Assembly: GCA_022710645.1 (NCBI GenBank)
Contig: JAKLGL010000002.1
Coordinates: forward strand, 14,337-78,336
Length of the DNA stretch: 64,000 nucleotides
Reading direction: 5' to 3'
Source: Patescibacteria group bacterium
GTDB lineage: Bacteria > Patescibacteriota > Patescibacteriia > Magasanikbacterales > GWA2-37-8
The notes under the pieces were generated by a model. The model searched no databases, was not told where the DNA came from, and was given only the letters and a program-made list of their open reading frames with translations. The position numbers and the translations under genes were made by a program. This document shows positions 5,343 to 51,593 of this stretch, piece after piece. Position 1 is the stretch's first letter; every line of letters starts with the position of its first letter.

Positions 5343-5346
5343 AAAA

Positions 5347-6921: not shown

Positions 6922-6930
6922 AAGTTTATT

Positions 6931-8202: not shown

Positions 8203-8204
8203 TT

Positions 8205-9017: not shown

Positions 9018-9231
9018 GGAGCCACTCATAGTAGACGGGGTATATGCGTGACGAAAGTAAATTTACATAAAATAATCTATCTCATTCTTTCCCTTTGTTG
9101 ATTTCGGTTGAGGAACTTCAAACCATTCAGGATGTTGTTTAAACATATCTCGTAATTCTTTTATAATTGGATCAAGAGTCCAGATTGTGAACCGTCTAAA
9201 TTGCCGTTTTGGTTCTAATTTCGGGACATCA

Positions 9232-9424
9232 TCTCCGCATATAAAATCACCGTAAGGTGATTTTTTTATACGGGGAGGAGAAAGCAAAAAGTTTTGCTTT
9301 CGTCGGGATGAGAACGCCGGAGCGATATTTTATGAGCTTGTGAGCGAATAAAATCGCGAGGCGGTGGCTAGCCCGAGGAGTTGAAAAACGACGAGAAACG
9401 AAGCCGAATCCCTGCCTCTCCGCA
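9232..9424. repeat. Right copy of the roughly 195 bp direct repeat; ends in an exact copy of the tRNA-Ser 3' end (CGAATCCCTGCCTCTCCGCA)
   Basis: Alignment to 4271-4466. Confidence 0.85.
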
Positions 9425-9513
9425 TAAAAAACCTGCCTATAAAGGCAGATTTTATATTAATCTAAATAAACATTGAAACAGTCTTTTATTTAAAGTATAC
9501 TTAAAAATGCCTT

Positions 9514-10464: not shown

Positions 10465-10499
10465 AAAATACTCGTATCAAACGAGTATTTTTTAGTTCT

Positions 10500-14420: not shown

Positions 14421-15135
14421 GCGCCCACACTTCTATCGCACCGGCTTCCTTGCAAACTCTGGCCGCTTCTTGCAAAGTGGCACCGGTAGTAAAAACATCA
14501 TCAATCAAGACCACTCGTTTTTGCGGGAGGTTTTTTATTTTGAAAGCGTTTTTTATATTCTCCATTCTCTCCTCTCTTTTCAACTTGGCTTGTTGTTTGG
14601 TTTTTTTAACCCTTTCCAATAAATCCGTAACAACAAAATCTCGTTCGGGATAATATTCCCGGGCTTTAGCCAAAAATATTTCCGTCAATTCTTTCGCCTG
14701 ATTAAAACCGCGCCAGCGTTCGCGAACGGAAAATAAAGGAATAAAAGAAAAAGTCGTATTTTCCTCAAGCCAAAAATCATTTCGCCTAAAAACTTTATTT
14801 TTAGAAATCATTTCATACCACAAATTTTCCAAATCTTTCATAAAACCATATTTATAATCATGCAGTAGATCGGAAAGCGGAGAAGGTTCATAAAAAGGAA
14901 AGAACGAAATTACTCCATCAAGAAAAGACTCTTTTTGGCAACAACTACAAACAGAACCTTTTTTATTTTCTATTTTACAAATCGGACAACGCCAAATCCC
15001 TTCATTATCCAAAAAATGACGATGCTCAAGGCACCACCATTGCCCTTCCGCCCCGCAATCCACACATTTTTTGGGAAACAAAAAATCTTTTACCATTGGT
15101 AATTTTTCCAAAATAAATTTTATCATATTAAACAA
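14398..15135 (-). CDS. comF: ComF-family protein (phosphoribosyltransferase-type competence protein with an N-terminal Zn finger)
   Basis: CxxC pairs at the N-terminus; PRTase motif VVLIDDVFTTGATL. Confidence 0.8.
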   Translation of the reverse strand: MFNMIKFILEKLPMVKDFLFPKKCVDCGAEGQWWCLEHRHFLDNEGIWRCPICKIENKKGSVCSCCQKESFLDGVISFFPFYEPSPLSDLLHDYKYGFMKDLENLWYEMISKNKVFRRNDFWLEENTTFSFIPLFSVRERWRGFNQAKELTEIFLAKAREYYPERDFVVTDLLERVKKTKQQAKLKREERMENIKNAFKIKNLPQKRVVLIDDVFTTGATLQEAARVCKEAGAIEVWALTLFRAE

Positions 15136-15179
15136 AAATCCGTCCCGATTTTATATCGAGGCGGATTTTTTAAAAAATA

Positions 15180-15782
15180 TTATTTCCATTTTACATTATC
15201 CACCAACCAGCCTTCGCCGTTTCTAACCAAAGAAATCTCAGCTTCTTGATTGTAATTTTTTACAACTCCGCCATTATTTTCCTCGCGAGAAGTAATGGCG
15301 CGAATAGTCGCTTTTTCCGCCGTAATTTCTGTCACAGTAACACTGAAAGCCTCGGTTGTAACTCCGATAAACTCCTTGCCGGTATTCATACCTTCTATTC
15401 TTTTTGCAAAAACATTCCAAAGATCTTTCGTACTCAAAGACTCTAACTCTTTCAAATTTTGTCCGGGGTTATCCGTAGAATAAGATCCGTATCTTTCAAT
15501 AAAAATTTTAGCGATACTTTGCGCAGCCGATTTGATTTTTTCTTCTTCACTTAAAGGAGATACGGCAGGATTGATTCCTATTGCCGTCGGTACCGTACCA
15601 TTGGCAACAATGGCGGTATCGGTTTGACCGCCGACAGTTTGTTCTTGGTTATTCTGTGTATTCTCCCCGCTATCTGTATTTCTTTGTTTGGAAAAAACTA
15701 TCAAACCGACACTTATCGCCAAAATCAACAGAACCACTATGCTAATGATAATAAAAATTCTCGCTCTTAAAGTCAAATTCAT
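15180..15782 (-). CDS. Hypothetical TM-anchored secreted protein, candidate VirB8-like component
   Basis: N-terminal TM, roughly 170 aa extracytoplasmic domain, adjacent to VirB4. The VirB8 call is speculative. Confidence 0.5.
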   Translation of the reverse strand: MNLTLRARIFIIISIVVLLILAISVGLIVFSKQRNTDSGENTQNNQEQTVGGQTDTAIVANGTVPTAIGINPAVSPLSEEEKIKSAAQSIAKIFIERYGSYSTDNPGQNLKELESLSTKDLWNVFAKRIEGMNTGKEFIGVTTEAFSVTVTEITAEKATIRAITSREENNGGVVKNYNQEAEISLVRNGEGWLVDNVKWK

Positions 15783-15786
15783 ATTT

Positions 15787-17667
15787 TTATTCTTTATTTA
15801 ATAATTGTTCTTCAAATTCCTTTTTGGCTTTTTCAATGGCTAGTAATTGTTCCGGATTGGTGGTAACTATCTGATCTTCGAAATTAGAAGCCAAAACTTG
15901 AATACCGGCATGTTTACTCCCAGCAAAGAAAATACCTTGACCGACGGAAGAATTTAATAAAAACATCCTCTCACTATCGGTTAAAGCAAAAGACTTTTGC
16001 ACTAAATCTATGGCTGTCGGAGACTGTTTGAGCAATAATTGCAAAGCGGAATTGGTAACAATCGGCTGTCCGTATTGAGAACGTAAAAAGTCGTTAACAT
16101 CTTGAGTAATAGTGGTTATACCGAGATAATATTTACGACAACGTTTCACTAAAGCGAAGATAAAACTCGCGCTATCCTCTTGTTGCATCAACCACCAGGC
16201 TTCGTCTATCACCAAAATCCTTTTCTTGCGTTCCGAGCGAACTATATTCCAAATAAAATTAACAATAGTATAAATGGCCATTGGACGAAGTTCGGCTTCC
16301 AAATCACGAACACCAAAAACCATCAATTGATTATTCAAATCAACATTGGTCGGAGAGTTGAAAAGCCCGCTAAATGTGCCTTCGGTAAATTTATTTAATT
16401 TCAAAACCAGCTCTTCGGAATTGGTCATCCCCTCCAAAACTTCCTGTAAATCTTGCATGATAGGAGCTTGTACAGTATTCAAATCCGCATCTCGAGTAAT
16501 ATCTTTTTTGGCGTAAGTTTCCAAAAGAGCTTTATCAATAACGGAATCTTGTTGAGTGGTTAAACCGCCAAGCATAATTTTCAATAAACCTTTCACGGTA
16601 ATAATGGCGCTACGTATAACATCTTCAGTGCTCATTTCCAAATTTCCCGTTTGTTTTGGTAGATCAAACGGATTAATTTTCGCTTCCGAAGACAAAGAAA
16701 TATTCACGTAAGTTCCGCCGACAGCGTCACACAGATGTTTGTATTCCATTTCCGGATCTATAACTATAATATCTACCCCCATCATGAGCGAGCGTAATAT
16801 TTCCAATTTTATCGCATAACTTTTACCCGCGCCCGAACTGGCAAAAACCACCATATTGGCGTTTTGCAAAGAAAATCTGTCAAAAACTATCAAGCTGTTA
16901 TTGTGTAAATTGATACCGTAAAAAATCCCATTGTCGGAAGTAAGTTCGGCGGAAACAAACGGAAAAGATGCGGCTATAGGCGAAGAATTCAAGTTAAAAG
17001 GAATATACAACTCATCGTTACAAATCGGTAAAGTGGAATTAAAACCTTGCTCAGCTTGATAAAAAACCTTATGAGTGATGATGAGTTTTGAACCAAAAAT
17101 ACCTTCCACATCTTCTGAAAGTTGATCTAATTCTTTTTTATCTTTGGCATAGAGAGTAACATAAAAACAAAATTGAAAAAAATGTTCGGTACCTTGCGTC
17201 AGATTGTCGCGTAATTGTTCAATATCCCTCAAAGCGGTCTCGCGTAATGGGTCGCGCGGAGCGCCTTTTTCTCTATCAGCGCTCAATTGAGCTTCCAAAG
17301 CTCCAACTTTATTTTTCAACTGTTTCAAAATAACCGCTGATTTAACCGGATAAAAAAACATACCGATATCCATGGTTGAAGCCAGATTAATAACCGGCGA
17401 ACTCCAACCGATACTGATATAACGAGGATAAGCGGAAATAAAAATCGTTCGGCAATAAATGTCTCCCAATTGCAAAAAACTACTTTCAACTCTGAAAGCT
17501 GCCGGAGATATCAAATCACGAATGGAAACTTCGCTTTCCCGATAAACTCTTTCTTCCTGCAAAGTCAACAATTCCTCCTCTACTTTTTTCTTGAGTTGAC
17601 CCTGCTCTCTTTCGTAAATGGTAGTTTGATTTTTTTCTATTTTTCCGCTTATTGGTTTGAAAGCCAT
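15787..17667 (-). CDS. virB4: VirB4/TraE-family type IV secretion ATPase (Gram-positive PrgJ/TcpF-like)
   Basis: Walker A SSGAGKS, Walker B ILVIDEAWW, N-terminal LQLGDIYCRTIFISAYPRYISIGW motif typical of VirB4/TraE. Confidence 0.85.
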   Translation of the reverse strand: MAFKPISGKIEKNQTTIYEREQGQLKKKVEEELLTLQEERVYRESEVSIRDLISPAAFRVESSFLQLGDIYCRTIFISAYPRYISIGWSSPVINLASTMDIGMFFYPVKSAVILKQLKNKVGALEAQLSADREKGAPRDPLRETALRDIEQLRDNLTQGTEHFFQFCFYVTLYAKDKKELDQLSEDVEGIFGSKLIITHKVFYQAEQGFNSTLPICNDELYIPFNLNSSPIAASFPFVSAELTSDNGIFYGINLHNNSLIVFDRFSLQNANMVVFASSGAGKSYAIKLEILRSLMMGVDIIVIDPEMEYKHLCDAVGGTYVNISLSSEAKINPFDLPKQTGNLEMSTEDVIRSAIITVKGLLKIMLGGLTTQQDSVIDKALLETYAKKDITRDADLNTVQAPIMQDLQEVLEGMTNSEELVLKLNKFTEGTFSGLFNSPTNVDLNNQLMVFGVRDLEAELRPMAIYTIVNFIWNIVRSERKKRILVIDEAWWLMQQEDSASFIFALVKRCRKYYLGITTITQDVNDFLRSQYGQPIVTNSALQLLLKQSPTAIDLVQKSFALTDSERMFLLNSSVGQGIFFAGSKHAGIQVLASNFEDQIVTTNPEQLLAIEKAKKEFEEQLLNKE

Positions 17668-17676
17668 ATTTTTTGA

Positions 17677-18360
17677 TTAAGATTCAACCCTCATATAATC
17701 CACTGGCGCCAAAGGCTGATTTTGCGCAATATCCGGATTATAAGTAGAATAATATAATTCAATCAATGCTTGAGTATCCAAGCGTATAACATCAAGATTC
17801 ATCCCGGACAAACCGGCTTCTATCAATCTAACTCTGGCATCCAATTCTCCTTTTCTTTTTTTGAAAGTTTCTTCTTTCAAACGAATCAAATTTATCGGAT
17901 TCAAAGCATCGCCCAAACGAGACCAAAAACTTTTTTTCTTGTTAGTCATAGGATCGTAAGGCACCACAACATAAAATTGTTTTGAAGTGATATTACGCAA
18001 AGTCACCGTCTCATTGATAAAAGATATATAATCGGATATCTGGGCTTTCAGCAATTCGTTTTCTATCTGCTCCCGACGAGCTTGCAATGTCTCCATATAG
18101 GGCCTGATATTGAGTTGTCGAGATTGAATACAAATCTGCAAAGGGTGATCCAGAGAATTCAAAAACGAAACATAGGAAGAAATTATAGCCTGCTGTTCTT
18201 CTTCGTTGAGCAAACCGAAATTAACGCTACTAACCATCAATACCGCTCTTAAAGTACCGTCTTTCATCACCACAGTGTCATTCTTGACTTCCGAAATCGG
18301 CACATGAGCCTGAGAATTCGGTATACTTTTTTTCTTTTTTATCGATTGTTCGTTTTTCAT
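17677..18360 (-). CDS. Hypothetical T4SS-associated protein (227 aa)
   Basis: ORF between the PrgI-like and VirB4 genes with tight spacing. Confidence 0.55.
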   Translation of the reverse strand: MKNEQSIKKKKSIPNSQAHVPISEVKNDTVVMKDGTLRAVLMVSSVNFGLLNEEEQQAIISSYVSFLNSLDHPLQICIQSRQLNIRPYMETLQARREQIENELLKAQISDYISFINETVTLRNITSKQFYVVVPYDPMTNKKKSFWSRLGDALNPINLIRLKEETFKKRKGELDARVRLIEAGLSGMNLDVIRLDTQALIELYYSTYNPDIAQNQPLAPVDYMRVES

Positions 18361-36432: not shown

Positions 36433-38283
36433 ATGAGAAACTTTTTCGCCTTTGTGATCGCAGTTGCGATCACCCTTGCCTTCGTTGCTTGCGACAATGG
36501 TATCAGTCCGGTTGATAACACTAACATCACGGACAATGACAACGCCGTAAACGACGATACTACTGATGATGTCACGGACAATGACACTGTTACCTTGAAA
36601 CCGTTCACTATTAAGGGTGCGGTTGCCAAAGGCCCGCTCGTAAAAGGTTCGGCTCTGTATTTCACGATTCTTTCTGAAATTGGTGAACAGGAAGGGCTTA
36701 TCCTGAATGCTACCACCGATGATGACCTCGGCCGGTTTTCTTACAAAGTGACCGCTGATGTTTCCCCCAAAGTGGTTGGGAAAGTTTGCAAAATCAGTGC
36801 CACCGGTTATTTTTACGATGAGATCGGTGACAGATTGAGCAATGCGCCCGTCACTTTGGAAGCCCTGTTCCGGATTACGGACACAGAAGTGCAGGATGCC
36901 AGAATAAATCTTCTCACTCATATGACAGTCAAGCGTACGCTTGCGTTGATGAGTGATGGGACAATGCTTTTTGAGGATGCTCAGGCGCAAGCCGAAAGTG
37001 AACTCATCGCGGAAATGGGAGTTTTCTATGCTCCCTCGGATGAGGATCCTAAGAAAAAAGCCATTGAGATGGATCTGACCAAAGATCCCTATCCGTTGGC
37101 CATCGCTTGCATCTTCGGACAGAGTGCCTATAACATCGCCAAAGACAGTGCTGAATTTTATGGGAAGTATCAACAGCTTCTCAATGATACTGCTGCTGAT
37201 CTTTCTGATGGCGTGCTGACCGATAAGACAAAAGAAATCATCGTTGCTGGTGAACAGGCCCTAGATGCTGACGCATGCGCCGCTAACCTCAAGAATTATC
37301 TTGAGGAAAAAACCGGTGAAACTCAGACTCTACCCAACCCCAACGAATCCGTTGACACCAACAAAGATGGCGTTCCCAATGTCTCTGATCCGGATGTTGA
37401 TGGAGACGGGGTGCCAAACGAAGATGATTGTGTGATGGGAAAAACGGATTATAAGTTAGTTTTTGTAGCCAAAAGTGTTTTTTGCATATCAAAAAAAGAC
37501 AATACTTGGTCTTGTTACACTCTCTCACTTGGAAATGCTTATGGATGGGGAAATGAAACATGGAAAAATGATTTTTCCATGGTTGCTAGTGGCTCTTCAC
37601 ACTTTTGTGGTATAGATACGGAAAATATTTTATGGTGTTGGGGGCACATTGATGAATCAAGCCCTAATTACCAATCTACACCGATTGAAAATACTGGTAT
37701 ATGGAAAAACTTATGGGCCGGTCAAAATCGTTTATGTTCTATTTCGGATATGGATACTCTCTATTGTTGGCAGGGCTTAATGATTGGAGAAGGTATAAAA
37801 GCTAATGATGACACAAACTGGTCAAATTTATCACTCGGAAATGACAAATTCTATGCCATTAAAAGCGATGGGACACTCTGGGGTTGGAACTTCGAAGAAA
37901 TTCCTGTCCAAATCGGTACAGATCTCTGGAAATTCTTTTCGAACACTTCCCTTTATGCCGTCAAGACAGACGGCACACTCTGGTATGTCTCAGATTTTCT
38001 TTCTCCTGTTCAAGTCGGCACTGACACGGACTGGGAGTCTGTTTACGGCACTTGTGCTGTTAAGACAGATAATTCACTTTGGTGCTGGAATGAATCTGAT
38101 ATGACCCCGGCAACCAAAATTGATTCAATCGGTTGGTCCTGTGGACAATGGCAATTTATCTCTCACTACAAGAAGGTTGATGTAGAAACACAAGAACTTC
38201 TTTGTGGTCTCAAAACAGATGGTTCGCTTTGGTGTCTGAAGGACGGAGATCTTATCTACATTGAAAACCTCCCGCTAGAATAA
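36433..38283 (+). CDS. Lipoprotein with thrombospondin-type Ca-binding repeats and C-terminal RCC1-like beta-propeller repeats
   Basis: Signal peptide plus LAFVAC lipobox. DPDVDGDGVPNEDD motif. Four repeats of the form xAxKTDGTLWxW. Confidence 0.8.
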   Translation: MRNFFAFVIAVAITLAFVACDNGISPVDNTNITDNDNAVNDDTTDDVTDNDTVTLKPFTIKGAVAKGPLVKGSALYFTILSEIGEQEGLILNATTDDDLGRFSYKVTADVSPKVVGKVCKISATGYFYDEIGDRLSNAPVTLEALFRITDTEVQDARINLLTHMTVKRTLALMSDGTMLFEDAQAQAESELIAEMGVFYAPSDEDPKKKAIEMDLTKDPYPLAIACIFGQSAYNIAKDSAEFYGKYQQLLNDTAADLSDGVLTDKTKEIIVAGEQALDADACAANLKNYLEEKTGETQTLPNPNESVDTNKDGVPNVSDPDVDGDGVPNEDDCVMGKTDYKLVFVAKSVFCISKKDNTWSCYTLSLGNAYGWGNETWKNDFSMVASGSSHFCGIDTENILWCWGHIDESSPNYQSTPIENTGIWKNLWAGQNRLCSISDMDTLYCWQGLMIGEGIKANDDTNWSNLSLGNDKFYAIKSDGTLWGWNFEEIPVQIGTDLWKFFSNTSLYAVKTDGTLWYVSDFLSPVQVGTDTDWESVYGTCAVKTDNSLWCWNESDMTPATKIDSIGWSCGQWQFISHYKKVDVETQELLCGLKTDGSLWCLKDGDLIYIENLPLE

Positions 38284-38332: not shown

Positions 38333-38398
38333 GTAAACATTAATCTTTTGCACGAATATACACAAATGAACTTTGAATATTGAATATTAGCTATTAAA

Positions 38399-38428
38399 AC
38401 ATCCCGATTTTATATCGGGATGTTTTTT
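38399..38428. terminator. Hairpin terminator ATCCCGATTTTATATCGGGAT plus T-run. It shares the 16-mer TCCCGATTTTATATCG with the hairpin at 15148.
   Basis: Perfect 8-bp stem; sits between convergent genes. Confidence 0.5.
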
Positions 38429-38488: not shown

Positions 38489-41400
38489 TTATGGGGTTGG
38501 TTCTTCAGCTGGTGGAGTCTCTTCTTCAGCTGGTGGTGTTGGTTCTTCAACTGGTGGTGTTGGTTCTTCAACTGGTGGGGTTGTGGTGACTATTTCTTCA
38601 GTAGTAGATGGTGTCTCAACCATCCCTTCTTCCCCTCCTTGTAAAGGAGGGGTCATCACCTCACCCTCGCCTCCTTCTTGAGGAGGGGCTGGGGGTGGTG
38701 TTACTACAAACTTTCTCTTTGCAATTACCATCCAATCAAAAGTAGAAGAAGATATACCACCATTTAATTCTTTAACCACAAAACCTGTGGCTAATTTTTC
38801 TTTGACATATATGCCACCACATTCACCTGTCAGAGTAATATTAACTTTGAGCGGCTGAGTTTCGTCAATGAGTTCGCAAGTATCAGTATCAAAATTGATA
38901 ATTGCTTCGCCATTTATGAGTTCTGATGAACTAGAAAATACAAATTCCGAATATGGTGATTGCATAGCAAACATTTCTTTGGTGTTACCATCGCTGGTTT
39001 GGATCCTGGTGATAAATTGACCATTTTCATCAATCGCCCATTTATTATCAACACCTGTAATATTTTTTACATTTAACAGTGCATAATTTTGTAAATCTAG
39101 ATCTCCGCCAGAATAAGTTAGACTTCCACCAGATTGTTGAACACTTAAAGTTGTAGAAACCGCTTCGCGTAAAGCCTCAATTTCCGCTTGTTGAACCTTG
39201 GCTACTTCTATTAAAAATGCCGTTAATTTTGGATAATCAACTGATTTATAGGTAGTACTTACATCAGTATAAACAAGTTCAGGTAAAACTAATTCTAATT
39301 CTTGAGCCACAACACCAATCTGTCTTCTATCATCATTTGTAGGATAAGTAGAAGTGTTCCAATAATAATATATTCCCCTTAAATTAGTTAAAGCTTCTAA
39401 AACATTTTTTTCAGCATTGATAGAAATAATTTCTTTTTTAAAACGAACATCTGATTGTGTACACGACCCAAAACTACTATATAATATGCCTGAATTATCA
39501 ACACAAACTTCATGAGTTCCGTTTCCACTTAAGTTAGTTATTTGAGCTGAGCCATTTATATAAACACCTAATTGACCAGACGCACCCGCATCGACAACTA
39601 ATCTCCAATTGGAAACATTTACAGCTCCGATACCTACTCTGGTAGCTGAGGTACCCGAACCACGGACATGCAAAGCCGGATTACTTGTTTGTCCAGAACC
39701 ACTAAAACCTATTCCTAAACTACTACTTATACTATTTGTATAATATTGACCCAAAGAAAATCCATAATTTATATTATTACTAACTTTTGCATTGTCGCCA
39801 ATTGCATAAGAAGATGTATTGTTCATTCCGATTGTTGCACCAGCTCCAAGAGCATAAGAAAAAACAGATCCTTCATCTACTATAGATTGCCAACCCAAGG
39901 CATAACTTGAACCACCTCTGCTCTTTGCTCCTTTTCCTATAGCAACTGCATGATTAACAAAATTGGGAAAACCTAACACAGTATAATAACCAGCCCAAGC
40001 CTCTTCACCAAAAGCAAATGAAGTAACACCCCCAGCTATTGCTTTATAACCAAAAGCGAAAGAATTATTACTTACTACATTACCAAATAAACCTCCACTT
40101 AAAATCTGGCTTTCTTCACCGCCGGCAAAAGAATAATATGCTAAATTTGTAGTTGTAACATTTTTACCAAAAGCTATTGAGTAGGCTCCACCAGCGTAAC
40201 TTCCTGTGCCAAGAGCAAAAGAACTTGTACCCATAGCAGTATTATTATTACCTATAGAAAAACTGCCTTGTTTTCCAAGAGCCGCAGAACCATAACCCAT
40301 TGCTATACTGCCATCATTATTAATACTAAAAACATTTATACCAGTTGAAGAAGCAAAACTAACTATAGATGAATTTCCATTTTCTGTATCTCCTACCACT
40401 CTAAAAGTTGAATTTAGACTATTCTGGCTACCCACAGCAAAAGAACCTCTTATATAAGAATTATTTGTACCTGGATGACCGACCAAAGAAACTCCAATAT
40501 TGTTTGTCGTGTCATATAGTTCTAACACACCCCACCATTTATTTCCAATATCTTGATTCATAACAAGAGCACCGCCAACACTAGATGTATTGCCAGTTAA
40601 AAGAATGCCGTCATAACTATTCATAGTATGGACATGTAATTTGGTCCAGGCAGTTGTCGTCCCAATCCCCACATTTCCATTATTATCAATTGTCATTTTT
40701 TCCGTTAAACTCCCTTCATTATTAGTATAAAAAGCTAAACGACCGGTGGAAGAGCTGGAACCATTCAAAAGACCGGCAATACTAGCAACTGTACTAGAAC
40801 TATTAGAACTAATATTTCCATAAGGATCGACACTAGAATTTATTATGGAAATAAAATCAATACCTGGTCCCATACCATCGGCAGAGCTGACGTTTCTTCT
40901 AGCCGAAACTTTAAGAGCCGTATATTTAGAATTACCGCTTGCACTTCTTTCAAAAATCGGAGCTTTATCATAAGACGTGGCTACAGTATGCAAAATTCCA
41001 CTTGGACTAGTTGTGCCAATACCAATATTTCCACCATCTTCAATGAATAAACGTGTAACTCCGTGTGTTCTAAAACCAATAGGTAAATAGCTACCCAATA
41101 CAGCATCGTTTGCAATATAATGAGCAAAACCTGTATAACCACTTGAAGATACGTTAGAAGAAATTGATAAAACTCCCGTACTACTAACAATGTCAATTGA
41201 ACCGCCTTCAACGTGTAATTTTGCCAAAGGTGTAGAAGTTCCGATACCCACCCTTCCGTTTTCTAATATATTTAAATTATTTGATCCTTCTCCGTTCGCT
41301 TGAGTATAAAAACCCAATCTTGTTCCGTTTTGTTTTATAGACCAAGTACTTGTGCCGATATTTAAATTATCCACCCAAAGAGCATTCCATCTAGTCGTAG

Positions 41401-42925
41401 AAGCGCCGAGATTATAAACACTCATATTTCCTGTTCCTCCAGTCATATCCGGAATAACGTTGCGTAAAGTAGAAGTGCCGGCTACAGATAATAAAGTTAA
41501 AGGACTAACTGTCCCAATCCCAACATTACCACCCATAATTGCCATTGTGTTTGAATTTGTAATTGTATTATAAGCATCACTTAAAGAAATACCGAAAGAA
41601 TCATTGCCGCTAATTGTCATTCTTCTTCCAAAAATCGTAGAATAATTACCAGAAATTGAACTATCTTCAGCACTTCCAATAAAGGAAAAACCGCCTGAAA
41701 TATTATTTGATCCACCATTTGCAATAAAAGATTTTGAACCAGATACTGTGTTATAAGTTCCACCCCCTATAGAAGAAGCTTCTGATCCAGATTCAATTTT
41801 ATTTTGATAACCACCAGCAATAAATGAAAATGTACCTGTGGTGCTATTTCCATTTCCAAATGCAGCGCTCCAATTACCAGCAACCACATTAGCATTCATC
41901 GCAATACCATATTTATTTGTTATAATTTTAAAAATACTACTCGTCACCCAATTTTCTCCTCCATTATTTACCAAAAGCTGTCCAATATCACCACTGGGCA
42001 ATCCCCCGCCCAAATCACTCCAAGCCGTTCCGTTGTAATATCTAAACTTGTGGGATGTTGTATTGTAATAAAGATGACCGTCTATATTATTAACACTATC
42101 CAATTCCATATTTGAGCCCAATCTCGGGATCAAAATACCACGTTGCGTTGAAGAAACTTCAAACGCCACGGATGTTGTGGAAACATTTATGTTATGGCCG
42201 ATTGCAACCTGTCCGGAATTGAAGACGACGAAAGAAGAAGTGGCTACGCCGTTTTTATTAAAATGTATAAGATCACCAGTACCTAATTGTATTCCTCTCA
42301 ACAATGCACTCGAAGTAAGATAAGTTGAAGTTATGCCAGTAATAAAATTGGAAACATTCGGAACACAAAAACCTACAGAACCGTTACACCCACTATAAGT
42401 TCCCGGTAAACCCTCATCAGTTGTACATGAAGCGCCGTCGTGAATTTCACAGGTCAAACCGTCGGCATTACAATCATAATATCCGGTTTTACAAACACTG
42501 CAATTTGTCGCTCCTGGTTGAGAAGCCCACTTACCGGCCACACATTCGGTTACACGATTCAAGGTATTGCAAGATGATGAAGGACTACACCAAAAACTTC
42601 CGCTATTATCACAATACGGAGCTGCCGCATCCAAATAATCACAATCCACAACATAACCACCATAAGTTCCACCTCCGTTATTATTTGTAGAATTTACCCC
42701 AGGAACCAAACCAAATAACGTTGAAGAATTATACCACTGAGCCACACTGCCACTTAAACCGCACATTACTTCGCCTGGTCCAGCCAATTGACCACTATAC
42801 GTAGTAGGGCATTGTTTAGGATCAGCTTTCCAATTTGCCGCTTTGGAAATATCAACAAAAAATACAAAAGCACCTAACACAAACAAAACAATCATTATTG
42901 TTTTTATCAAAAAGTCTATTCTCAT
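38489..42925 (-). CDS. Giant secreted fibre/adhesin-like protein (about 1480 aa): signal anchor, Cys-rich N-terminal module, GIGT-repeat region, peptidase S74 intramolecular-chaperone autoprocessing domain, Pro/Glu-rich C-terminal tail
   Basis: S74 chaperone signature SDVRFKKEIISINAEKNVLEALTNLRGIYYYWN...QIGVVAQELELVLPELV. Repeated (N/R)VGIGT motifs. C-terminal PPVEEPTPP repeats. Start chosen at MRIDFLIKTIMIV (ATG 42923-42925), which is paralogous to the N-terminus of the neighbouring gene. Confidence 0.8.
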   Translation of the reverse strand: MRIDFLIKTIMIVLFVLGAFVFFVDISKAANWKADPKQCPTTYSGQLAGPGEVMCGLSGSVAQWYNSSTLFGLVPGVNSTNNNGGGTYGGYVVDCDYLDAAAPYCDNSGSFWCSPSSSCNTLNRVTECVAGKWASQPGATNCSVCKTGYYDCNADGLTCEIHDGASCTTDEGLPGTYSGCNGSVGFCVPNVSNFITGITSTYLTSSALLRGIQLGTGDLIHFNKNGVATSSFVVFNSGQVAIGHNINVSTTSVAFEVSSTQRGILIPRLGSNMELDSVNNIDGHLYYNTTSHKFRYYNGTAWSDLGGGLPSGDIGQLLVNNGGENWVTSSIFKIITNKYGIAMNANVVAGNWSAAFGNGNSTTGTFSFIAGGYQNKIESGSEASSIGGGTYNTVSGSKSFIANGGSNNISGGFSFIGSAEDSSISGNYSTIFGRRMTISGNDSFGISLSDAYNTITNSNTMAIMGGNVGIGTVSPLTLLSVAGTSTLRNVIPDMTGGTGNMSVYNLGASTTRWNALWVDNLNIGTSTWSIKQNGTRLGFYTQANGEGSNNLNILENGRVGIGTSTPLAKLHVEGGSIDIVSSTGVLSISSNVSSSGYTGFAHYIANDAVLGSYLPIGFRTHGVTRLFIEDGGNIGIGTTSPSGILHTVATSYDKAPIFERSASGNSKYTALKVSARRNVSSADGMGPGIDFISIINSSVDPYGNISSNSSSTVASIAGLLNGSSSSTGRLAFYTNNEGSLTEKMTIDNNGNVGIGTTTAWTKLHVHTMNSYDGILLTGNTSSVGGALVMNQDIGNKWWGVLELYDTTNNIGVSLVGHPGTNNSYIRGSFAVGSQNSLNSTFRVVGDTENGNSSIVSFASSTGINVFSINNDGSIAMGYGSAALGKQGSFSIGNNNTAMGTSSFALGTGSYAGGAYSIAFGKNVTTTNLAYYSFAGGEESQILSGGLFGNVVSNNSFAFGYKAIAGGVTSFAFGEEAWAGYYTVLGFPNFVNHAVAIGKGAKSRGGSSYALGWQSIVDEGSVFSYALGAGATIGMNNTSSYAIGDNAKVSNNINYGFSLGQYYTNSISSSLGIGFSGSGQTSNPALHVRGSGTSATRVGIGAVNVSNWRLVVDAGASGQLGVYINGSAQITNLSGNGTHEVCVDNSGILYSSFGSCTQSDVRFKKEIISINAEKNVLEALTNLRGIYYYWNTSTYPTNDDRRQIGVVAQELELVLPELVYTDVSTTYKSVDYPKLTAFLIEVAKVQQAEIEALREAVSTTLSVQQSGGSLTYSGGDLDLQNYALLNVKNITGVDNKWAIDENGQFITRIQTSDGNTKEMFAMQSPYSEFVFSSSSELINGEAIINFDTDTCELIDETQPLKVNITLTGECGGIYVKEKLATGFVVKELNGGISSSTFDWMVIAKRKFVVTPPPAPPQEGGEGEVMTPPLQGGEEGMVETPSTTEEIVTTTPPVEEPTPPVEEPTPPAEEETPPAEEPTP

Positions 42926-42954
42926 GGTTGTTTTGGATCGTATTCTCATATATT

Positions 42955-45594
42955 TTATTTGCAACAACTTATAGCTTTGGAGCTCACACATGTGGAAAGC
43001 CAGCCTTGTCCTCCACCGACAGTGCCCGTATATTCCCAAAAAGCTCCTAGATAATTTAAAGATGAAGTGGTATATCCCCCGCAATCATTGGCATAAGCTG
43101 TATAACCAGGCGGGCCTTCGGCAATCCAAGCTTGAGGTAATCCGGAAAATTTACTAAAATTATTTACGCGAATGAAAGAAATTATTTCTCCACTAAAACA
43201 GAAATGATAACCTGGGTAATAATAATTACAAATAGCATTGGCTGCTTGGTATCCTTTTAAAATTCCAGAACTAAAATCTCCATTAGTGGTTATAGGCGTT
43301 GTAGTAACATCGGTTATCGGGACAACCCAACCCAAAGTCGGATCAAAACAATTTGTTCCATTAACATCACAATATAGATTCGATCTTATTCCTGAATTAT
43401 GAGTCGAAGTTGCTTGAAAAGCGACTTGGGCCGTGAATGTAGCGTTGGTCACATTCAAATTTGTAATTGTAGAAGATGTGATTGTAGCATTGGCAATTGT
43501 CGAAGTTCCGATATTTGCAGTAATGATAGTGGAGCTAACGATGGTCGCTTCGTCGGCAAATAGATTTTTAAACCATCCAGTCAACCAACGTAATAATGAA
43601 TTACCCAAACTATACGTTTCCGTAATTTCCGGCATAACATTGTGCATGGTCGATGTTTGAGTTATTAACATCTGACCGTCAACAGTCAAGGTCGCGCCAG
43701 GCGTGGTAGTACCTATACCAACATTTCCATCAAACGAAACTATTTTATTTTGATACCACCTAATAGTAGTACTATTATATGCATAACCTAAGTAGCCATA
43801 ATTGAAAGTATTATCATTTCCACGAGCTCCTATCTGATAAATAGTAGTGGAATCATCTTCTTGAAAATTTAACATAGCCCTAGCCCAACTTCCGATAGAT
43901 GGTGAATCATCTTTTCTAACAATGACACTTCCATTATTTAATAAAACACTGGTAAAATTACCATCAACTTCCAAAGAAGCTCTGGGGTTAACTGTGTTTA
44001 TACCAACATATCCACTAGTAGATGAAACAAAAATCGCCGACGTAGCTGTAAGAACATTTCCGTTTGAAGCATAATAGAGAATTTGTCCTCTCGTGCCGGA
44101 AGGAATCATTCCAAGTGATGAAGTGTTAGTCCATTCCGGATAGCCAGAGGAACTAACCATGAGAATTTGCCTTTGAACTCCGGCATTTCCGTTAAATCTC
44201 AAAACGCCGTTTTCAATATGCATCCCTCCTTCAACCATTAACATCGAATCCCAGCCGTCATCGCCGGTAGTTGAACCGATAGCTAAAGTACTGCTAGCAA
44301 AAAAAGAATGACCACTGGCTGCAAGCATAGTGTGCGGTTGAGAAGGATCAAAATTTTCATAATAAAGACCTACAGCCCCGTTGGACGTAACTCCGGTAAA
44401 ATCCATATTTCCAAAACCGCCTAATAGATTTCCATTGGATCCATAAATTCCAAAACCGCCATAAGTACCAACATCCATTTGCACATTAAGCGCATAATTT
44501 AAAGTCGTGGTATTAATACCCACTTTCCCATCCGCACCCCAAACTCCCAACGGAAAAGTTGTTGTCATATTAAACGTGTGTTGACCAGACCAAGAAAAAT
44601 CTTGCGTTGTACTGACAGTAAATTCATATCCACTCAAATTCAATCCGCTTCCGGCAGTGTACACTCCCCCGCCAGTATTTAATTTCGTCTCACCCCAATA
44701 AAGATCACCGTTGTAATTATAAAATTGATTAGGCGCGGACGAAGTGGCAGAGGTTGAAGTCATAAATACTGTGCCGTCATTTTTCACTATAAAAATATTT
44801 GACGAAGTCGCATTGCCAAAATTTATCAAATCGCCTTCACCATATTGTCTGCCCCAAAGCAGAGGTGAGGTGGTGGCAAATATAGCTTCAATACCAGTCA
44901 CAAAAGTTGAAGTGGCAATAATACACTGACAAGAGCCGTTATAAACACCTTGCAAACCTCCAGCTCCGGTACAAGTTGTCACTCCCACATTAACTTCGCA
45001 ACCATCACCGGCTCCAGGACCGGAGGCATTACAATCAACATAATTCGTATCGCATTGGCAAGTACAAGAAGCACCGATATTATTATTGGCTCCGACAGAA
45101 CAATTGGTAGAATTGGTTTGCACTTCGCAAACACTCGGCGTCGCATCACAATCTTGATAACCGGAAATACAATTATTTCCGCAAGCCGAAGTTCCCCAAA
45201 CATTTTCCGTACACACGGTTTCTTTGTGATTTGTTCCATAACAAGTTTCGTTTCGATCGCACCAAAAGTTTCCGTTATTATCGCAACGCGCTCCAGCTCC
45301 GTCGTCAGTAGCAAAACAATTTATCAAATAACCTCCGGAAAACGAACTTGAATAATTAACGTTGGAAGTAGAAGAAACCGATGGTGGAATCAAGCCGGCA
45401 GTGGTAAAACATTGAGCCGTACCGGACAAATCACCGCAAATATTTTGCGGTGTGCAGTTTTGTCCTGGAAATGACGGACTGGTAGCCGGACATAAAGCGG
45501 GATTAGTAACCCATAATTCCGCAGCTTTGGTAACATCAACAAAAAATATAAACAAACCAAACACAAACAACACGATCATTATCGTTTTCATCAT
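42955..45594 (-). CDS. Secreted Cys-rich fibre/adhesin-like protein (about 880 aa), paralog of the giant protein at the N-terminus and of the 411-aa protein at the C-terminus
   Basis: N-terminal MMKTIMIVLFVFGLFIFFVDVTKA signal anchor. Shared motif TGWFKNLFADEATIVSSTIITANIGTSTI. C-terminal domain ending ...GAFWE...CCK. Confidence 0.8.
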   Translation of the reverse strand: MMKTIMIVLFVFGLFIFFVDVTKAAELWVTNPALCPATSPSFPGQNCTPQNICGDLSGTAQCFTTAGLIPPSVSSTSNVNYSSSFSGGYLINCFATDDGAGARCDNNGNFWCDRNETCYGTNHKETVCTENVWGTSACGNNCISGYQDCDATPSVCEVQTNSTNCSVGANNNIGASCTCQCDTNYVDCNASGPGAGDGCEVNVGVTTCTGAGGLQGVYNGSCQCIIATSTFVTGIEAIFATTSPLLWGRQYGEGDLINFGNATSSNIFIVKNDGTVFMTSTSATSSAPNQFYNYNGDLYWGETKLNTGGGVYTAGSGLNLSGYEFTVSTTQDFSWSGQHTFNMTTTFPLGVWGADGKVGINTTTLNYALNVQMDVGTYGGFGIYGSNGNLLGGFGNMDFTGVTSNGAVGLYYENFDPSQPHTMLAASGHSFFASSTLAIGSTTGDDGWDSMLMVEGGMHIENGVLRFNGNAGVQRQILMVSSSGYPEWTNTSSLGMIPSGTRGQILYYASNGNVLTATSAIFVSSTSGYVGINTVNPRASLEVDGNFTSVLLNNGSVIVRKDDSPSIGSWARAMLNFQEDDSTTIYQIGARGNDNTFNYGYLGYAYNSTTIRWYQNKIVSFDGNVGIGTTTPGATLTVDGQMLITQTSTMHNVMPEITETYSLGNSLLRWLTGWFKNLFADEATIVSSTIITANIGTSTIANATITSSTITNLNVTNATFTAQVAFQATSTHNSGIRSNLYCDVNGTNCFDPTLGWVVPITDVTTTPITTNGDFSSGILKGYQAANAICNYYYPGYHFCFSGEIISFIRVNNFSKFSGLPQAWIAEGPPGYTAYANDCGGYTTSSLNYLGAFWEYTGTVGGGQGWLSTCVSSKAISCCK

Positions 45595-45686
45595 CAAATC
45601 AAATTGTGTTGCTGTCCTACTATACATATTTTCTTTTTTGTAGCTTTACAAACTTTATAACTTTATGAACTTTATAAACTTATTTT

Positions 45687-46922
45687 TTATTTACAACAAG
45701 CTATAGGTTTGGTAACACTACAATTTACTAACCAACCGGCGCCGCCGGTAGTATTTTCAAATTCCCAAAACGCGCCCAAAGCCGACGGACTGCTGGTAGT
45801 CCAACCGATACAATCATTGGCATTTGCCGTATATCCGGGCGGACCGTTGGCAATCCAAGCCGTTCCTGCAAAATTGGAAATATCGTTGTCATCATAAATC
45901 ATTTTGATAATATCCTCGGCAGTGCAAAAATGATATCCAATATATTGACTGCGACAAATATTATCAGCGGCTCTGTAACCGCGAAGTGTCCCGGTGGAAA
46001 AATAACCGTTGGTTACCCCGGTGGTCGTACTCATTTGTAAAGCGGTAGAACCCCAACCACTAACACTGGGATCAAAACAATTATTTCCATCTTTATCACA
46101 AATCTGTCCGGCCATGATAGTGTTTGAAACCGTCAAATTTTCCGTATAAAAATTGGAGGACGTGGCGTTAACGGCGTTTAAATACGTTATTGTCGAACTG
46201 GTAATTGTGGCGTTTTCAATAGTCGAGGTTCCGATATTAGCATTGATCAAAGTAGAACTCACAATAGTCGCTTCGTCGGCAAACAAATTTACAAACCACC
46301 CTGTTAACCATTTAAAAATTGAACTTCCTAAACTAAACAAACCATTGGTTTGAGGAATAATATTTTGAACCGTAGAAGTTTGAGTCACATTTAAATTACC
46401 ATTCACATTCATATCACCAGTGGTAGTTACACTATTAAAACTGATATTTCCCTCATTGTCCGTTACCGGAATATAAGCGGTCGTTGTCGGTGTAGAAGTG
46501 GCTTCCAAACCGTTTAAATATCTAGCATTAAAAGCATATGGCACTGTTGCGATATGTTTACGCGGAGACAAAACTTGTCCTTCAACCGTAACTTGCAAAT
46601 AAATTACATCGTTATTCTTAAATATTTCCGAATCAAGCGGAGTAGTGCCTGGATCTCCGAGTAATATACTAAACAAACCACTACTTGGAGTAACAGCATT
46701 GGTTGTCGCATAAAGCGCACTTCCGCCGGTTGAGGTATTAAACAATTCAAAGGTCATTGTCAAAGAAGTACTGGCGGAAATTCCGTTTTCCAAAATTTTA
46801 CCTTGATAACTGATAATTGAAGGTGGATTGGCAGCATCAGATTTAAGAGACAGTAAAACAAAAACTGTCACTACTGTCAGCAGTCCTATGACTAGTTTAA
46901 GTTTTGTACTGTAATTACCCAT
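45687..46922 (-). CDS. Secreted protein (411 aa), shorter paralog sharing the NLFADEATIVSST motif and the C-terminal Cys-rich ...CCK domain
   Basis: Signal anchor. C-terminal alignment to the 890-aa protein (GPPGYTA.ANDC.G.TTSS...LGAFWE...CCK). Confidence 0.75.
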   Translation of the reverse strand: MGNYSTKLKLVIGLLTVVTVFVLLSLKSDAANPPSIISYQGKILENGISASTSLTMTFELFNTSTGGSALYATTNAVTPSSGLFSILLGDPGTTPLDSEIFKNNDVIYLQVTVEGQVLSPRKHIATVPYAFNARYLNGLEATSTPTTTAYIPVTDNEGNISFNSVTTTGDMNVNGNLNVTQTSTVQNIIPQTNGLFSLGSSIFKWLTGWFVNLFADEATIVSSTLINANIGTSTIENATITSSTITYLNAVNATSSNFYTENLTVSNTIMAGQICDKDGNNCFDPSVSGWGSTALQMSTTTGVTNGYFSTGTLRGYRAADNICRSQYIGYHFCTAEDIIKMIYDDNDISNFAGTAWIANGPPGYTANANDCIGWTTSSPSALGAFWEFENTTGGAGWLVNCSVTKPIACCK

Positions 46923-47046
46923 ATTTAAATTGCAAGATTACAAGATTGCAATATTTAAAGATTAATAGCTTTTGCCGATTATTACTGTTCCCTCCTTGGA
47001 TGCATTTGGAACATCCAAAAGTAATAATCGCTAATAAACTATCAAC

Positions 47047-47259
47047 TTATTGTAAAAGACGATCAATACTCCCCTGAGTCAAAATATGAGCCAGCGATGT
47101 AAGTGTTTGTAATGTCGGATTAACATTAAAACCACCTTCCAATTTTGCCAAATTGGAAAGCCTCAAATCCGCACTGCGCGCCAACATTTCTTGAGATATC
47201 CCCTTGCTCAAACGTAAACGCTTGAGATTGGCGCTAAATTTTTTTGTATCTACTTTCAC
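47047..47259 (-). CDS. XRE-family (Cro/CI-type) HTH transcriptional regulator, 70 aa
   Basis: LKRLRLSKGISQEMLA helix-turn-helix. Located directly upstream of, and co-oriented with, the adhesin-like gene array. Confidence 0.7.
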   Translation of the reverse strand: MKVDTKKFSANLKRLRLSKGISQEMLARSADLRLSNLAKLEGGFNVNPTLQTLTSLAHILTQGSIDRLLQ

Positions 47260-47848
47260 ACGAATAACTTATATATCAATATAATGATAGTTATTAATAG
47301 AAAGCTATTTTTAGATATCAATTAATAAATAGCATTTTATAACTATCAATATATAGAATTATAATATCATAAAAATCGATTTTTCTGAAAATAAGAGGTG
47401 TGGATAACTATAAGTTTATAAAGTTTACCCCGTTAAATCCCCGTAGGGGTCTGCCTTTGGCAGAATTTAACAGGGGTAAATAAAGTCTATAAAGTCCGTA
47501 AAGTCCCAAAAATATCAACTAAACGACCGAAATGATCGGTAGAATTTTCAATTTTTAATTTTACAATTTTTAATGAATTTTCAATTTACATTAATTTGTC
47601 ATTCCCGCCTACGAGCGGGAATCCAGTGGTTTTTTTTATATTTCCTGGATCCCTGCTGCAGTTTATCCGCCTATGGCTGGCAGGGATGACACTGCAATCC
47701 CCCATCGGGGATCCCTCTTTTTTTACTATGATTATATTGATATCAATATAAAGATATATACCAAACAACAAAAAATCCCGTTTTCACGGGACTTTATGGA
47801 CCTTATAAACTTTATGGACCTGCCTACCGGCAGGCAGGCTTTACAGAC
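47260..47848. other. Complex structured intergenic region. It contains AT-rich ATCAATAT-type palindromes, one DnaA-box 9-mer (TGTGGATAA), inverted arrays of the 9-bp ACTTTATRG repeat (47481-47507 and 47789-47819) bracketing a roughly 280 bp segment with AATTTTCAATTT iterons, two strong hairpin terminators, and a copy of the CCTGCCTACCGGCAGGCAGG palindrome at 47827-47846.
   Basis: All elements read directly from the sequence. Confidence 0.6.
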
Positions 47849-50825: not shown

Positions 50826-51593
50826 ATGAAAATAATCACTAAAAATAATTTTGAACTCAAACCAAATACTTTTGTGTTGGTTGATAAGCCGGTAAACTGG
50901 ACTAGTTTTGATGTGGTTGGTTATTTACGAAAACTATTTCGCCAACAATATCCGGATTTAAAAAAAGTCAAAGTTGGTCATGCGGGCACACTTGATCCTT
51001 TTGCTACCGGACTTTTGATTGTTGCTTTGGGACGCGAAGCTACGCGAGAAATTGAAAATTTCAAAAACTTAAATAAAACTTACGAAGCGACTATCAAACT
51101 TGGGGAAATATCTAACACGGGAGATAATACAGGTAATATTCAACCTTACAAATTAAGTGGCTTAAACAAAATAATCTTCAATCTAAAAACCTGCCTGCCG
51201 GCAGGCAGATCTAAAATCTTAAATAAAACTGGACAGACACCCGCCAAAACTGAAGTAGAAAAAGTACTTGCTAAATTTATTGGCCCTCAAAAACAAACTC
51301 CTCCAATGTTTTCCGCCAAAAAAGTCAATGGTCAGAGACTTTACGATTTAGCACGCAAAGGTAAAGAAATAAAAAGAAAAGCAAACAAAATTGAAATTTT
51401 TCATATAAACATTTTAGACTATCAATATCCATTTCTAACAATCAAAGTTATCTGCTCCCCCGGCACCTATATCCGCACCTTAGCCGAAGATATCGGAAAA
51501 AAACTCAAAATCGGAGCATACTGCCAAGAACTGAAACGTACCGACATAGGACATTACAAATTGAATGATGCCATAGAATTACCTTTGAAATAA
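50826..51593 (+). CDS. truB: tRNA pseudouridine(55) synthase TruB, with a roughly 25 aa insertion relative to the canonical TruB spacing that coincides with an embedded palindromic repeat
   Basis: GHAGTLDP catalytic-Asp motif; the length and order of motifs match TruB. Confidence 0.9.
   Translation: MKIITKNNFELKPNTFVLVDKPVNWTSFDVVGYLRKLFRQQYPDLKKVKVGHAGTLDPFATGLLIVALGREATREIENFKNLNKTYEATIKLGEISNTGDNTGNIQPYKLSGLNKIIFNLKTCLPAGRSKILNKTGQTPAKTEVEKVLAKFIGPQKQTPPMFSAKKVNGQRLYDLARKGKEIKRKANKIEIFHINILDYQYPFLTIKVICSPGTYIRTLAEDIGKKLKIGAYCQELKRTDIGHYKLNDAIELPLK

Follow-up and report, generated by a model that had tools for sequence, protein, structure and literature searches.

The closest described systems are the mosaic adhesive trimers (MATs) of Bdellovibrio. 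These surface fibres are trimers and have a signal peptide, an N-terminal retention domain of ~130 amino acids (aa) that does not vary, and a β-helical shaft (Caulton et al. 2024, Nat Microbiol, PMC10769870; structures PDB 8OND, 8OJN and 8OKS). Their mosaic tips fall into 13 with an S74 chaperone domain and eight without, the latter including a C-type-lectin fold; the tip of Bd2740 has this fold, with agkisacucetin and IX/X-BP as neighbours, and was read as adhesive (PMC10769870). Each Bdellovibrio MAT is presented singly, and the table of MATs found elsewhere lists predators and Omnitrophica, with bacteria of the candidate phyla radiation (CPR) and DPANN archaea absent from it (PMC10769870). 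The subject here is an array of three genes, called A, B and C, which lies downstream of a small XRE-family regulator gene in a 64-kb stretch of a Magasanikbacteria chromosome (the window; contig JAKLGL010000002.1 of assembly GCA_022710645.1, positions 14,337 to 78,336). The products of these genes are probably adhesive fibres of the MAT and phage-tail-fibre kind, exported to the surface of the Magasanikbacteria cell. A literature search of incomplete coverage turned up no account of fibres with S74 or of the MAT type in CPR bacteria or DPANN archaea.

The array resembles the Bdellovibrio MATs in several respects. Its proteins have a signal peptide, one conserved end and a diversified remainder, and several copies occur per genome. 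They share the β-helical shaft motif VG(I)G/N-T-x-x-P-x-x-x-L, with C alignable to the MAT Bd2133, and their tips belong to S74 and non-S74 classes, the C-type-lectin-like domain (CTLD) of the second class lacking a Ca-binding motif as in Bd2740. Bdellovibrio lives by contact with other cells, which is counted as a further likeness. By contrast, only A has a MAT N-domain, with a score below the family cut-off, while B and C start with an unrelated module of 22 Cys, named B_N here. In C, the S74 domain is internal and is followed by a conserved β-sandwich and an acidic Pro-rich tail. The array family also keeps a strict order, in which a CTLD end is followed by a B_N start, and it is carried by CPR bacteria and DPANN archaea. 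As A fits the description of a short non-S74 MAT-like protein, while C fits in its shaft and S74 tip and B in its shaft motif and tip but neither in its N-domain, the array is a new, MAT-like variant and not a set of plain MAT members.

Other systems share single traits with the array. Phage fibres and tailspikes with S74 domains (K1F endosialidase 3GW6, T5 pb1 4UW8, T4-like gp37; MEROPS S74) have the SDxxxK motif of C, a long helix after S74 and matches in PHROG and BFVD alike, but C is encoded among chromosomal housekeeping genes, has a Sec signal peptide and continues for ~220 residues past the chaperone. The CTLD, which ends in CCK, finds its best fold matches among protein-binding tips with a C-type-lectin fold (Bordetella phage Mtd, the snake-venom proteins IX/X-BP and agkisacucetin, endostatin and Leptospira Len, DUF1554), likewise with no Ca/sugar motif. 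Unlike these protein-binding domains, it has no Lectin_C or PDB sequence match, contains eight Cys and sits at the extreme C-terminus. The long tail fibre of phage T4 (gp34-gp35-gp36-gp37) offers an analogy, with consecutive genes whose products join head to tail and the last of which forms a chaperone-dependent distal tip; unlike this fibre, the array shows no sequence relationship to it, the joining is deduced from gene order and assembly would take place outside the cell. The eukaryotic protein MYRF has an internal S74/ICA domain like C, and cleavage parts its N-terminal trimer from a C-terminal part with a role of its own. However, the C-terminal part of MYRF is membrane-anchored, C has no transmembrane segment after S74, and the biology is unrelated.

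Modular architecture of the array proteins

The array and the regulator gene are four co-directional open reading frames (ORFs) on the minus strand of the window (Table 1). The initial annotation described three paralogous genes with a common MKTIMIVLFV N-terminus, Cys-rich modules and one motif shared by all three, but pairwise comparison gives a different picture. A and B are alike at the C-terminus only, where the 286 aa ending in CCK, correctly assigned to the two smaller proteins, are 50% identical (E 1e-75). B and C are alike at the N-terminus only, where the signal peptide and the Cys-rich N-module (~280 aa) are 35% identical (BLASTP, E 9e-32), and A and C have a single short motif in common (E 5e-4). 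The MKTIMIVLFV signal peptide and the Cys-rich module hold for B and C, while the signal peptide of A is a different one and its N-domain is unrelated; the supposedly universal motif, NLFADEATIV, is found in A and B and is missing from C. The N-modules of the A type and the B type were judged not to be homologous, with an hhalign probability of 0.05%. Because each pair has a different region, or one short motif, in common, A, B and C are, as judged from their sequences, pairwise mosaics of modules with two unrelated N-terminal modules and not three paralogues. The N-termini of all three resemble cleavable signal peptides with sites SKA-A, TKA-A and SDA-A, and together with the Cys-rich modules and the tail-fibre matches of C this upholds the earlier description of exported, Cys-rich, phage-tail-fibre-like proteins.

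The N-domain of A gives 27.5 bits against NCBIfam NF053851 (Bdello_MAT_N), a model titled "mosaic adhesive trimer family chimeric fiber protein" for which the NCBI cut-off is 60. The same model is matched by 23 of 39 relatives, with a best E of 8.9e-13. By sequence, the domain appears related to the MAT N-domain of Bdellovibrio, though below the cut-off for membership. In B and C there is no NCBIfam match to Bdello_MAT_N at E<=0.1. The AlphaFold2 (AF2) monomer model of A has two confident domains.

The second of these is the CCK domain (pLDDT 85-90), whose model is C-type-lectin-like. In Foldseek, the PDB structures closest to it in fold are the carbohydrate-recognition domains (CRDs) of C-type lectins and endostatin, with a probability of 0.93-0.98 and weak E from 8.5e-3; the neighbours are mannose-receptor CRD4, IX/X-BP, agkisacucetin, mincle and endostatin. 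An alignment of 12 CTLD sequences has GPPGY, NDC, GxW and CC as invariant residues and lacks the Ca/sugar motifs EPN/QPD and WND; the eight Cys of the domain include the terminal CC-K/R. Neither A nor B has a Pfam match, to Lectin_C or any other family, and the CTLD profile finds 0 matches among PDB sequences at E<=10, while one relative weakly matches DUF1554 and the LenA/LenB endostatin-like model. Among 1.84 billion representatives searched with a profile, 1093 clusters at 50% identity contain the domain. All but one of the top 150 representatives have it as their extreme C-terminus; 51 of the 150 have a MAT_N-like domain and 12 B_N, with neither detected in 86. Two CTLD-ended proteins, P0212 and P0231, have an N-terminus resembling cytoplasmic DNA-binding proteins (…YISLSDASK…SQEYLSLLARKGKL…GRNW…) and no signal peptide, MAT_N or B_N.

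B_N is present in 63 of 193 collected homologues, where it is paired with many different C-terminal parts, and its Cys columns are nearly invariant. The module has no match in Pfam or NCBIfam, which leaves a reading of its C..GY.DC…CE repeats as a known Cys-repeat model unsupported, and a search of IMG/VR with the pattern PLLWGxQxGxGDL, back-translated, gave no match. Since the proteins headed by B_N end in quite different parts, the module may present varied payloads. One such protein (P0183; L047, 4601-7486) contains a pretoxin-HINT domain, typical of polymorphic toxins, and another (P0090; L025) contains kelch repeats. In B itself, the shaft carries three VGINT/VGIGT motifs.

Protein C is the largest of the three. 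Its residues 622-777 align to Bd2133, a Bdellovibrio MAT with a solved crystal structure (8OND_A, E 7.3e-7), residues 535-607 align to it as well, and 8OJN is also matched. The alignment with 8OND spans the VGIGTxxPxxxL units, which are the GIGT repeats reported in the initial annotation and are present as four V/IGIGT motifs. Matches to tail-fibre PHROGs reach an E of 7e-19. A YadA-type trimeric autotransporter adhesin was rejected, as YadA_head scores 18.9 bits in C against a cut-off of 25, a C-terminal membrane-anchor domain is absent and the protein ends in a Pro/Glu-rich stretch.

The S74 domain of C is as clear as had been claimed, with a match to PF13884 at aa 1166-1227 (E 1.1e-12, 48.4 bits against a cut-off of 22). 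The catalytic Ser-Lys dyad is intact on alignment, as S1166-D-V-R-F-K1171 aligns with SSDRRIKK of 6F45_A, a phage long-tail-fibre chain, and the SDxRxK motif is kept in most homologues. The S74 part has 181 fold matches in BFVD at E<=1e-3, dominated by S74/IMC tail-fibre proteins. In the PDB, the model of C, a monomer of moderate confidence, weakly matches 3GW6 (E 0.097).

The domain is not terminal in C. The β-sandwich which follows it (aa ~1299-1412; pLDDT 85-93) matches the tailspike of cyanophage Pam1 in Foldseek (7EEA, E 4e-4), along with C-terminal domains of tailspikes and depolymerases and an H-type lectin. With 86-91% identity in three syntenic genomes, the post-chaperone module is better conserved than any other part of C. 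It is also found behind Peptidase_G2-type self-cleaving chaperone domains of other giant CPR proteins, a distribution that points to an independent module under constraint. It is C-terminal in P0063, P0065, P0067-P0069, P0073, P0079-P0081 and P0084, followed by a Pro/Glu/Thr-rich tail. Tails of like composition occur in homologues, and the Pro/Glu tail previously noted on the largest protein is present at aa 1413-1486.

Divergence at a conserved chromosomal site

The array is flanked on one side by nusA and genes for a YkuD L,D-transpeptidase, an MBL hydrolase, a methyltransferase, ComEC and LeuRS, and on the other by those for thioredoxin (Trx), IF2, TruB and RNase Y. The same site is found in three other genomes (Logan SRR26159228, L004; NCBI GCA_036744835.1, L006; ENA ERZ724082, L007), in the order IF2-Trx-XRE-[fibres]-RCC1 lipoprotein-LeuRS. 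No phage structural, integrase or lysis genes were seen among the flanking genes in the window. Because of these housekeeping flanks and the conserved synteny, the setting is chromosomal and not that of a prophage, in line with the initial annotation, and a prophage origin of the array was rejected.

As to copy number across strains, a check proposed with the initial annotation, the site holds 3, 3, 3 and 4 fibre genes in the window, L004, L006 and L007, respectively. The neighbouring proteins IF2, RNase Y, Trx and XRE are 92-97% identical to those of L004. Protein A reaches 86% identity to its L004 counterpart. In B, the N-module is 87% and the CTLD 83% identical, while the middle part falls to 43%. 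In C, the corresponding values are 61% for the N-module, 29-33% for the shaft, 39% for S74 and 86% for the post-chaperone domain. Across orthologues the shaft of C, with 28-43% identity, is the fastest-diverging part of the protein, and set against the 92-97% of the flanking genes this agrees with the notion of a diversifying family. From the difference between end and middle identities, the fibre genes have constant ends, with the shafts as their diversifying parts. In L006, the third fibre gene (13519-17880; B_N…S74…post-chaperone) is intact as an open frame of 1454 codons, while the deposited gene calls contain only small ORFs on the opposite strand, which looks like an annotation gap.

Gene order in CPR bacteria and DPANN archaea

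A trimmed CTLD alignment led to 36 loci among GTDB species representatives, and local hidden Markov models (HMMs) of the modules were mapped onto all ORFs of the non-redundant loci. The taxon labels are those of the metagenome-assembled genome (MAG) records. They name Magasanik-, Falkow-, Moran-, Peri-, Parcu-, Shapiro- and Staskawiczbacteria; some loci bear the unconfirmed record label 'uncultured Gammaproteobacteria'. A CTLD-ending ORF is followed directly and on the same strand by a B_N-headed ORF in 49 of 54 assessable cases, and in these CTLD-chosen loci all B_N-headed ORFs (49/49) are directly preceded by a CTLD-ending one. As the loci had been picked through the CTLD, five B_N-headed genes picked by their N-module alone were checked too, and each (5/5) has a CTLD-ending gene directly upstream.

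The gene pair also occurs in two DPANN archaeal loci, one in a Woesearchaeota MAG and one on a contig with a proteasome gene. The usual cassette consists of two genes, the first encoding an anchor and a CTLD and the second a giant protein headed by B_N. A middle protein with both modules, like B, is an addition of the lineage of the window. Some of the first genes encode just 175-190 aa, made up of a hydrophobic N-terminus, ~40 aa and the CTLD.

A contig classed as viral (L008, IMGVR_UViG_3300037722_000435) encodes a CTLD protein of 187 aa (7773-8336) and a B_N-headed protein of 659 aa (9086-11062), with an HNH endonuclease gene between the two and a baseplate-hub-like gene nearby. Both proteins have signal peptides, which weakens a reading of them as phage fibres; rather than belonging to a virion, they may be cargo for export or come from host DNA.

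Proposed function and assembly of the fibres

The reading of A, B and C as surface fibres or adhesins, already put forward in the initial annotation, gains support from the homology to the Bdellovibrio MAT fibres (8OND, E 7.3e-7; Bdello_MAT_N, E 2.4e-6). The CTLD also has agkisacucetin and IX/X-BP as fold neighbours in common with the tip of Bd2740. By analogy with these fibres, those of the array would very probably be trimeric. The three proteins would be exported by Sec, and many of their Cys would be oxidised to disulfides outside the cell. C would trimerise with the help of S74, which would then cleave itself at Ser1166 and bare the tip of the shaft as a binding surface. The fibres would contact another cell, namely the host of a presumed episymbiont, or a surface, with the variable shafts supplying binding specificity.

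Beyond this, the CTLD may tentatively be seen as a docking socket for the B_N of the next protein, so that A would hold B and B would hold C. Four observations suggest this, namely the gene-order rule, the pattern of conservation, the shortness of some bases and the missing sugar-binding motifs. The result would be a jointed A-B-C fibre which is built outside the cell and anchored by the MAT_N-like domain of A. It is possible, at a similarly cautious grade, that CTLD and B_N are a cognate socket-and-plug pair and belong to a host-contact apparatus shared by ultra-small episymbionts of two domains of life, the CPR bacteria and the DPANN archaea. A base of anchor and CTLD would then hold a B_N-headed fibre, two-module proteins like B would be extension pieces, giving four pieces in L007, and a variable, chaperone-matured tip would cap the fibre.

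Several points weigh against these proposals. The AF2 models are of monomers only and have low-confidence shafts, so that trimer, cleavage, display and binding remain predictions. A β-domain conserved at 86-91% after S74 fits poorly with a piece that is discarded on cleavage. B and C are without the MAT N-domain, which serves for retention on the cell in Bdellovibrio. The CTLD-to-B_N order has exceptions in L013, L044 and the second gene of L041, and the order could reflect co-expression or the DNA linkage of conserved ends and not docking. Correlated divergence between a CTLD and the next B_N would not tell docking from linkage, as their coding sequences lie side by side. That the cell of this Magasanikbacteria MAG lives as an episymbiont is assumed from its phylum.

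The strict MAT model, in which A, B and C are separate trimeric fibres whose CTLDs and S74-bared tips bind host ligands, is possible though rather doubtful. Adjacency of the genes would here result from nothing but co-regulation together with duplication and recombination. This would agree with the single presentation of the Bdellovibrio MATs and the adhesive lectin tip of Bd2740 (PMC10769870), with CTLD-ending genes that have no B_N neighbour in L013 and, three in tandem, in L044, and with the 86 of 150 top CTLD representatives in which neither N-module was detected. However, the CTLD is among the most conserved parts of the proteins (83-92%, against 43% for the middle), which is unexpected for a tip that determines host specificity. 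Separate fibres also do not account for a pairing that is near-universal in both directions (49/54 and 5/5), and B_N has no known retention mechanism. Finally, bases of 175-190 aa are unlike adhesins that reach out, as they are too short to reach a partner cell.

Delivery of a secreted effector or toxin, in which S74 cleavage would free an active C-terminal fragment onto neighbouring cells, is improbable. Such a role would suit the post-chaperone module, which exceeds the rest of C in conservation and is found behind two types of self-cleaving chaperone, and also the pretoxin-HINT domain of the B_N-headed relative P0183. Against this, no toxin, enzyme or immunity domains were detected in A, B and C with Pfam and NCBIfam, C is not followed by a small immunity-like gene, and the β-domain resembles the C-terminal domains of tailspikes and lectins and not enzymes. 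Virion proteins that are assembled in the cytoplasm need no signal peptides. Receptor-binding fibres of a prophage, a tailocin or another phage-derived particle, despite the tail-fibre PHROGs, the S74 domain, the BFVD matches to phage fibres and the CTLD and B_N-headed genes near a baseplate-hub-like gene in IMG/VR contig L008, are highly improbable in view of the housekeeping neighbours without phage structural, integrase or lysis genes, the site and synteny kept in four genomes, and the signal peptides on all three array proteins and on both L008 proteins. Exported surface fibres with an adhesive function thus remain the preferred reading of the array.

Transcription, regulation and neighbouring features

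The spacers XRE-A, A-B and B-C measure 124, about 60-90 and 5 nt; the raw ORF of gene C starts from a TTG at 43084. The terminator scan placed a terminator-like hairpin 3' of the thioredoxin gene upstream of the array and a second hairpin past the end of C, the latter a candidate two-way terminator that would close the array. Given the short gaps and the hairpins after thioredoxin and after C, one transcription unit with XRE at its head and running through A-B-C is plausible.

Table 1. Coordinates of the array, its modules and associated elements in the window
Feature	Coordinates	Strand	Description
Gene A	45687-46922	-	411 aa (ORF list); signal peptide (aa 1-29), MAT_N-like β-domain, short stalk, C-type-lectin-like end
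A N-terminal β-sandwich, aa 30-135	46518-46835	-	NCBIfam NF053851 Bdello_MAT_N, E 2.4e-6; pLDDT >90
A CTLD, aa 276-411	45690-46097	-	Ends in CCK; common to B; C-type-lectin-like fold (Foldseek)
Gene B	42955-45594 (45627 from upstream ATG)	-	879/890 aa; signal peptide, Cys-rich N-module, variable shaft, CTLD end
B Cys-rich N-module (B_N), aa 25-340	44575-45522	-	22 Cys; common to C
B CTLD, aa 741-879	42958-43374	-	Local HMM match, 2e-63
Gene C	38489-42949	-	1486 aa; signal peptide, B_N, long shaft, S74, β-domain, acidic Pro-rich tail
C B_N, aa 39-315	42005-42835	-	BLASTP against B, 35% identity, E 9e-32; HMM matches
C shaft, aa 316-1165	39455-42004	-	YadA-head-like repeats; four V/IGIGTxxPxxxL motifs
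C Peptidase_S74 chaperone domain, aa 1166-1267	39149-39454	-	Predicted self-cleavage motif SDVRFK, 39437-39454
C post-chaperone module, aa 1268-1412	38714-39148	-	Linker and β-sandwich; no Pfam/NCBIfam match
C tail, aa 1413-1486	38492-38713	-	Pro/Glu/Thr-rich, low complexity; disordered in model
XRE-family HTH_3 regulator	47047-47259	-	70 aa, GTG start; Pfam HTH_3, E 1.2e-7, 32.1 bits (cut-off 23)
Promoter/operator block	47260-47410	-	Upstream of XRE; promoter scan, inverted repeat, motif enrichment, four-genome alignment
Long hairpin, XRE-A intergenic	46961-47046	-	Inverted repeat; GGAGGG in internal loop
Palindromic GC-rich hairpin	38396-38426		Terminator scan; between convergent gene C and RCC1 lipoprotein gene

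The XRE protein is 94% identical in the sister genome L004/L005, and each of the four syntenic genomes encodes it ahead of the array. None of about 20 other loci has an XRE-like ORF upstream of its first gene; XRE was found before the equivalent genes neither in other CPR classes nor in the Magasanikbacteria genome L009. The regulator is therefore a lineage-specific addition in one Magasanikbacteria sublineage and not a core part of the fibre system. That it heads the array holds for this locus (HTH_3, E 1.2e-7); the other loci lack it, and the idea that XRE and the cassette generally go together was dropped. In L007, the XRE gene was missed by the gene caller because of its GTG start.

A promoter-like site upstream of XRE has a -35 element TTCAGA (47384-47389) and a TG-extended -10 element TATTAT (47361-47366), and TTGATA / ATCAATAT half-sites are repeated in dyad symmetry at 47269-47364. 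Four of the 11 matches to ATCAATAT in the window lie within ~600 nt upstream of XRE, against 5 expected in the whole window, and an enrichment of these sites upstream of XRE is thereby confirmed. The ~110 nt directly upstream of the XRE start are near-identical in the four syntenic genomes, and sequences farther upstream cannot be aligned; the block of L007 has one additional 28-nt unit. This conserved block, with its TG-extended -10 element and dyad TTGATA/ATCAATAT half-sites as a putative operator, fits an autoregulated repressor. The XRE protein would repress its own promoter via these repeats, and thereby the co-directional fibre genes too.

Further elements lie in the same intergenic DNA. 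A perfect, DnaA-box-like TTATCCACA at 47399-47407 (-), ~35 nt upstream of the XRE -10 element, is kept in the four syntenic genomes; it is probably not a replication origin, as the cumulative GC skew has no turning point there. Just past the thioredoxin terminator lies a perfect 16-nt palindrome, ATATTGATATCAATAT (47734-47749), with the same half-site as the XRE operator repeats, and back-to-back ATCAATAT sites occupy the matching relative place in L005 and L007. The conserved long hairpin between XRE and A has 34 pairs in RNAalifold (4 sequences), with compensatory changes in 11 of these; it is not followed by a T-run and may be an RNA processing or attenuation element. Inverted repeats of 33 nt (47475-47507 and 47788-47820, 85% complementary) bracket ~280 nt of the spacer between Trx and XRE. 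The bracketed stretch may be a small inserted element, as the spacer measures ~590 nt here and ~316 nt in the sister L005. In L007, a region between thioredoxin and XRE (5223-7403) contains an Eco57I-type restriction-modification gene, a 171-aa ORF and a second small helix-turn-helix (HTH) gene. Apart from tRNA genes, the window has no Rfam matches.

Convergent to C lies a gene for an RCC1 lipoprotein (36433-38283, +) with Asp-rich TSP3-like repeats and RCC1 repeats. It has counterparts at the same position in L004, L006 and L007, and with only 59% identity in L004 it is counted as another fast-evolving surface protein at the array site. TruB (50826-51593, +) is 76% identical to its L004 counterpart, while its neighbours RNase Y and IF2 reach 96-97%. 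The window matches contig DAOTEN010000004.1 of GCA_035454185.1, where an identical protein A is on record. NCBI lists protein B as a hypothetical protein from a Candidatus Magasanikbacteria bacterium.

Possible role in host contact

In Saccharibacteria, type IV pili have been implicated in contact with the host. To our knowledge, the means of recognising and holding a host is not established for most CPR bacteria and DPANN archaea, and there are few candidates outside Saccharibacteria. The array is a concrete candidate for host contact. It combines conserved joints with fast-evolving shafts, occupies a constant hot spot on the chromosome and has a core gene pair that is found again in DPANN and in many CPR classes. 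The array extends the MAT concept beyond predators, and it shows that an S74 chaperone can be internal and followed by a strongly conserved module. If CTLD and B_N do dock, cells would have a new means of making modular fibres outside themselves, out of pieces that are exported separately. For fibres that mediate host contact, the variable parts would be expected to differ in step with the range of hosts.

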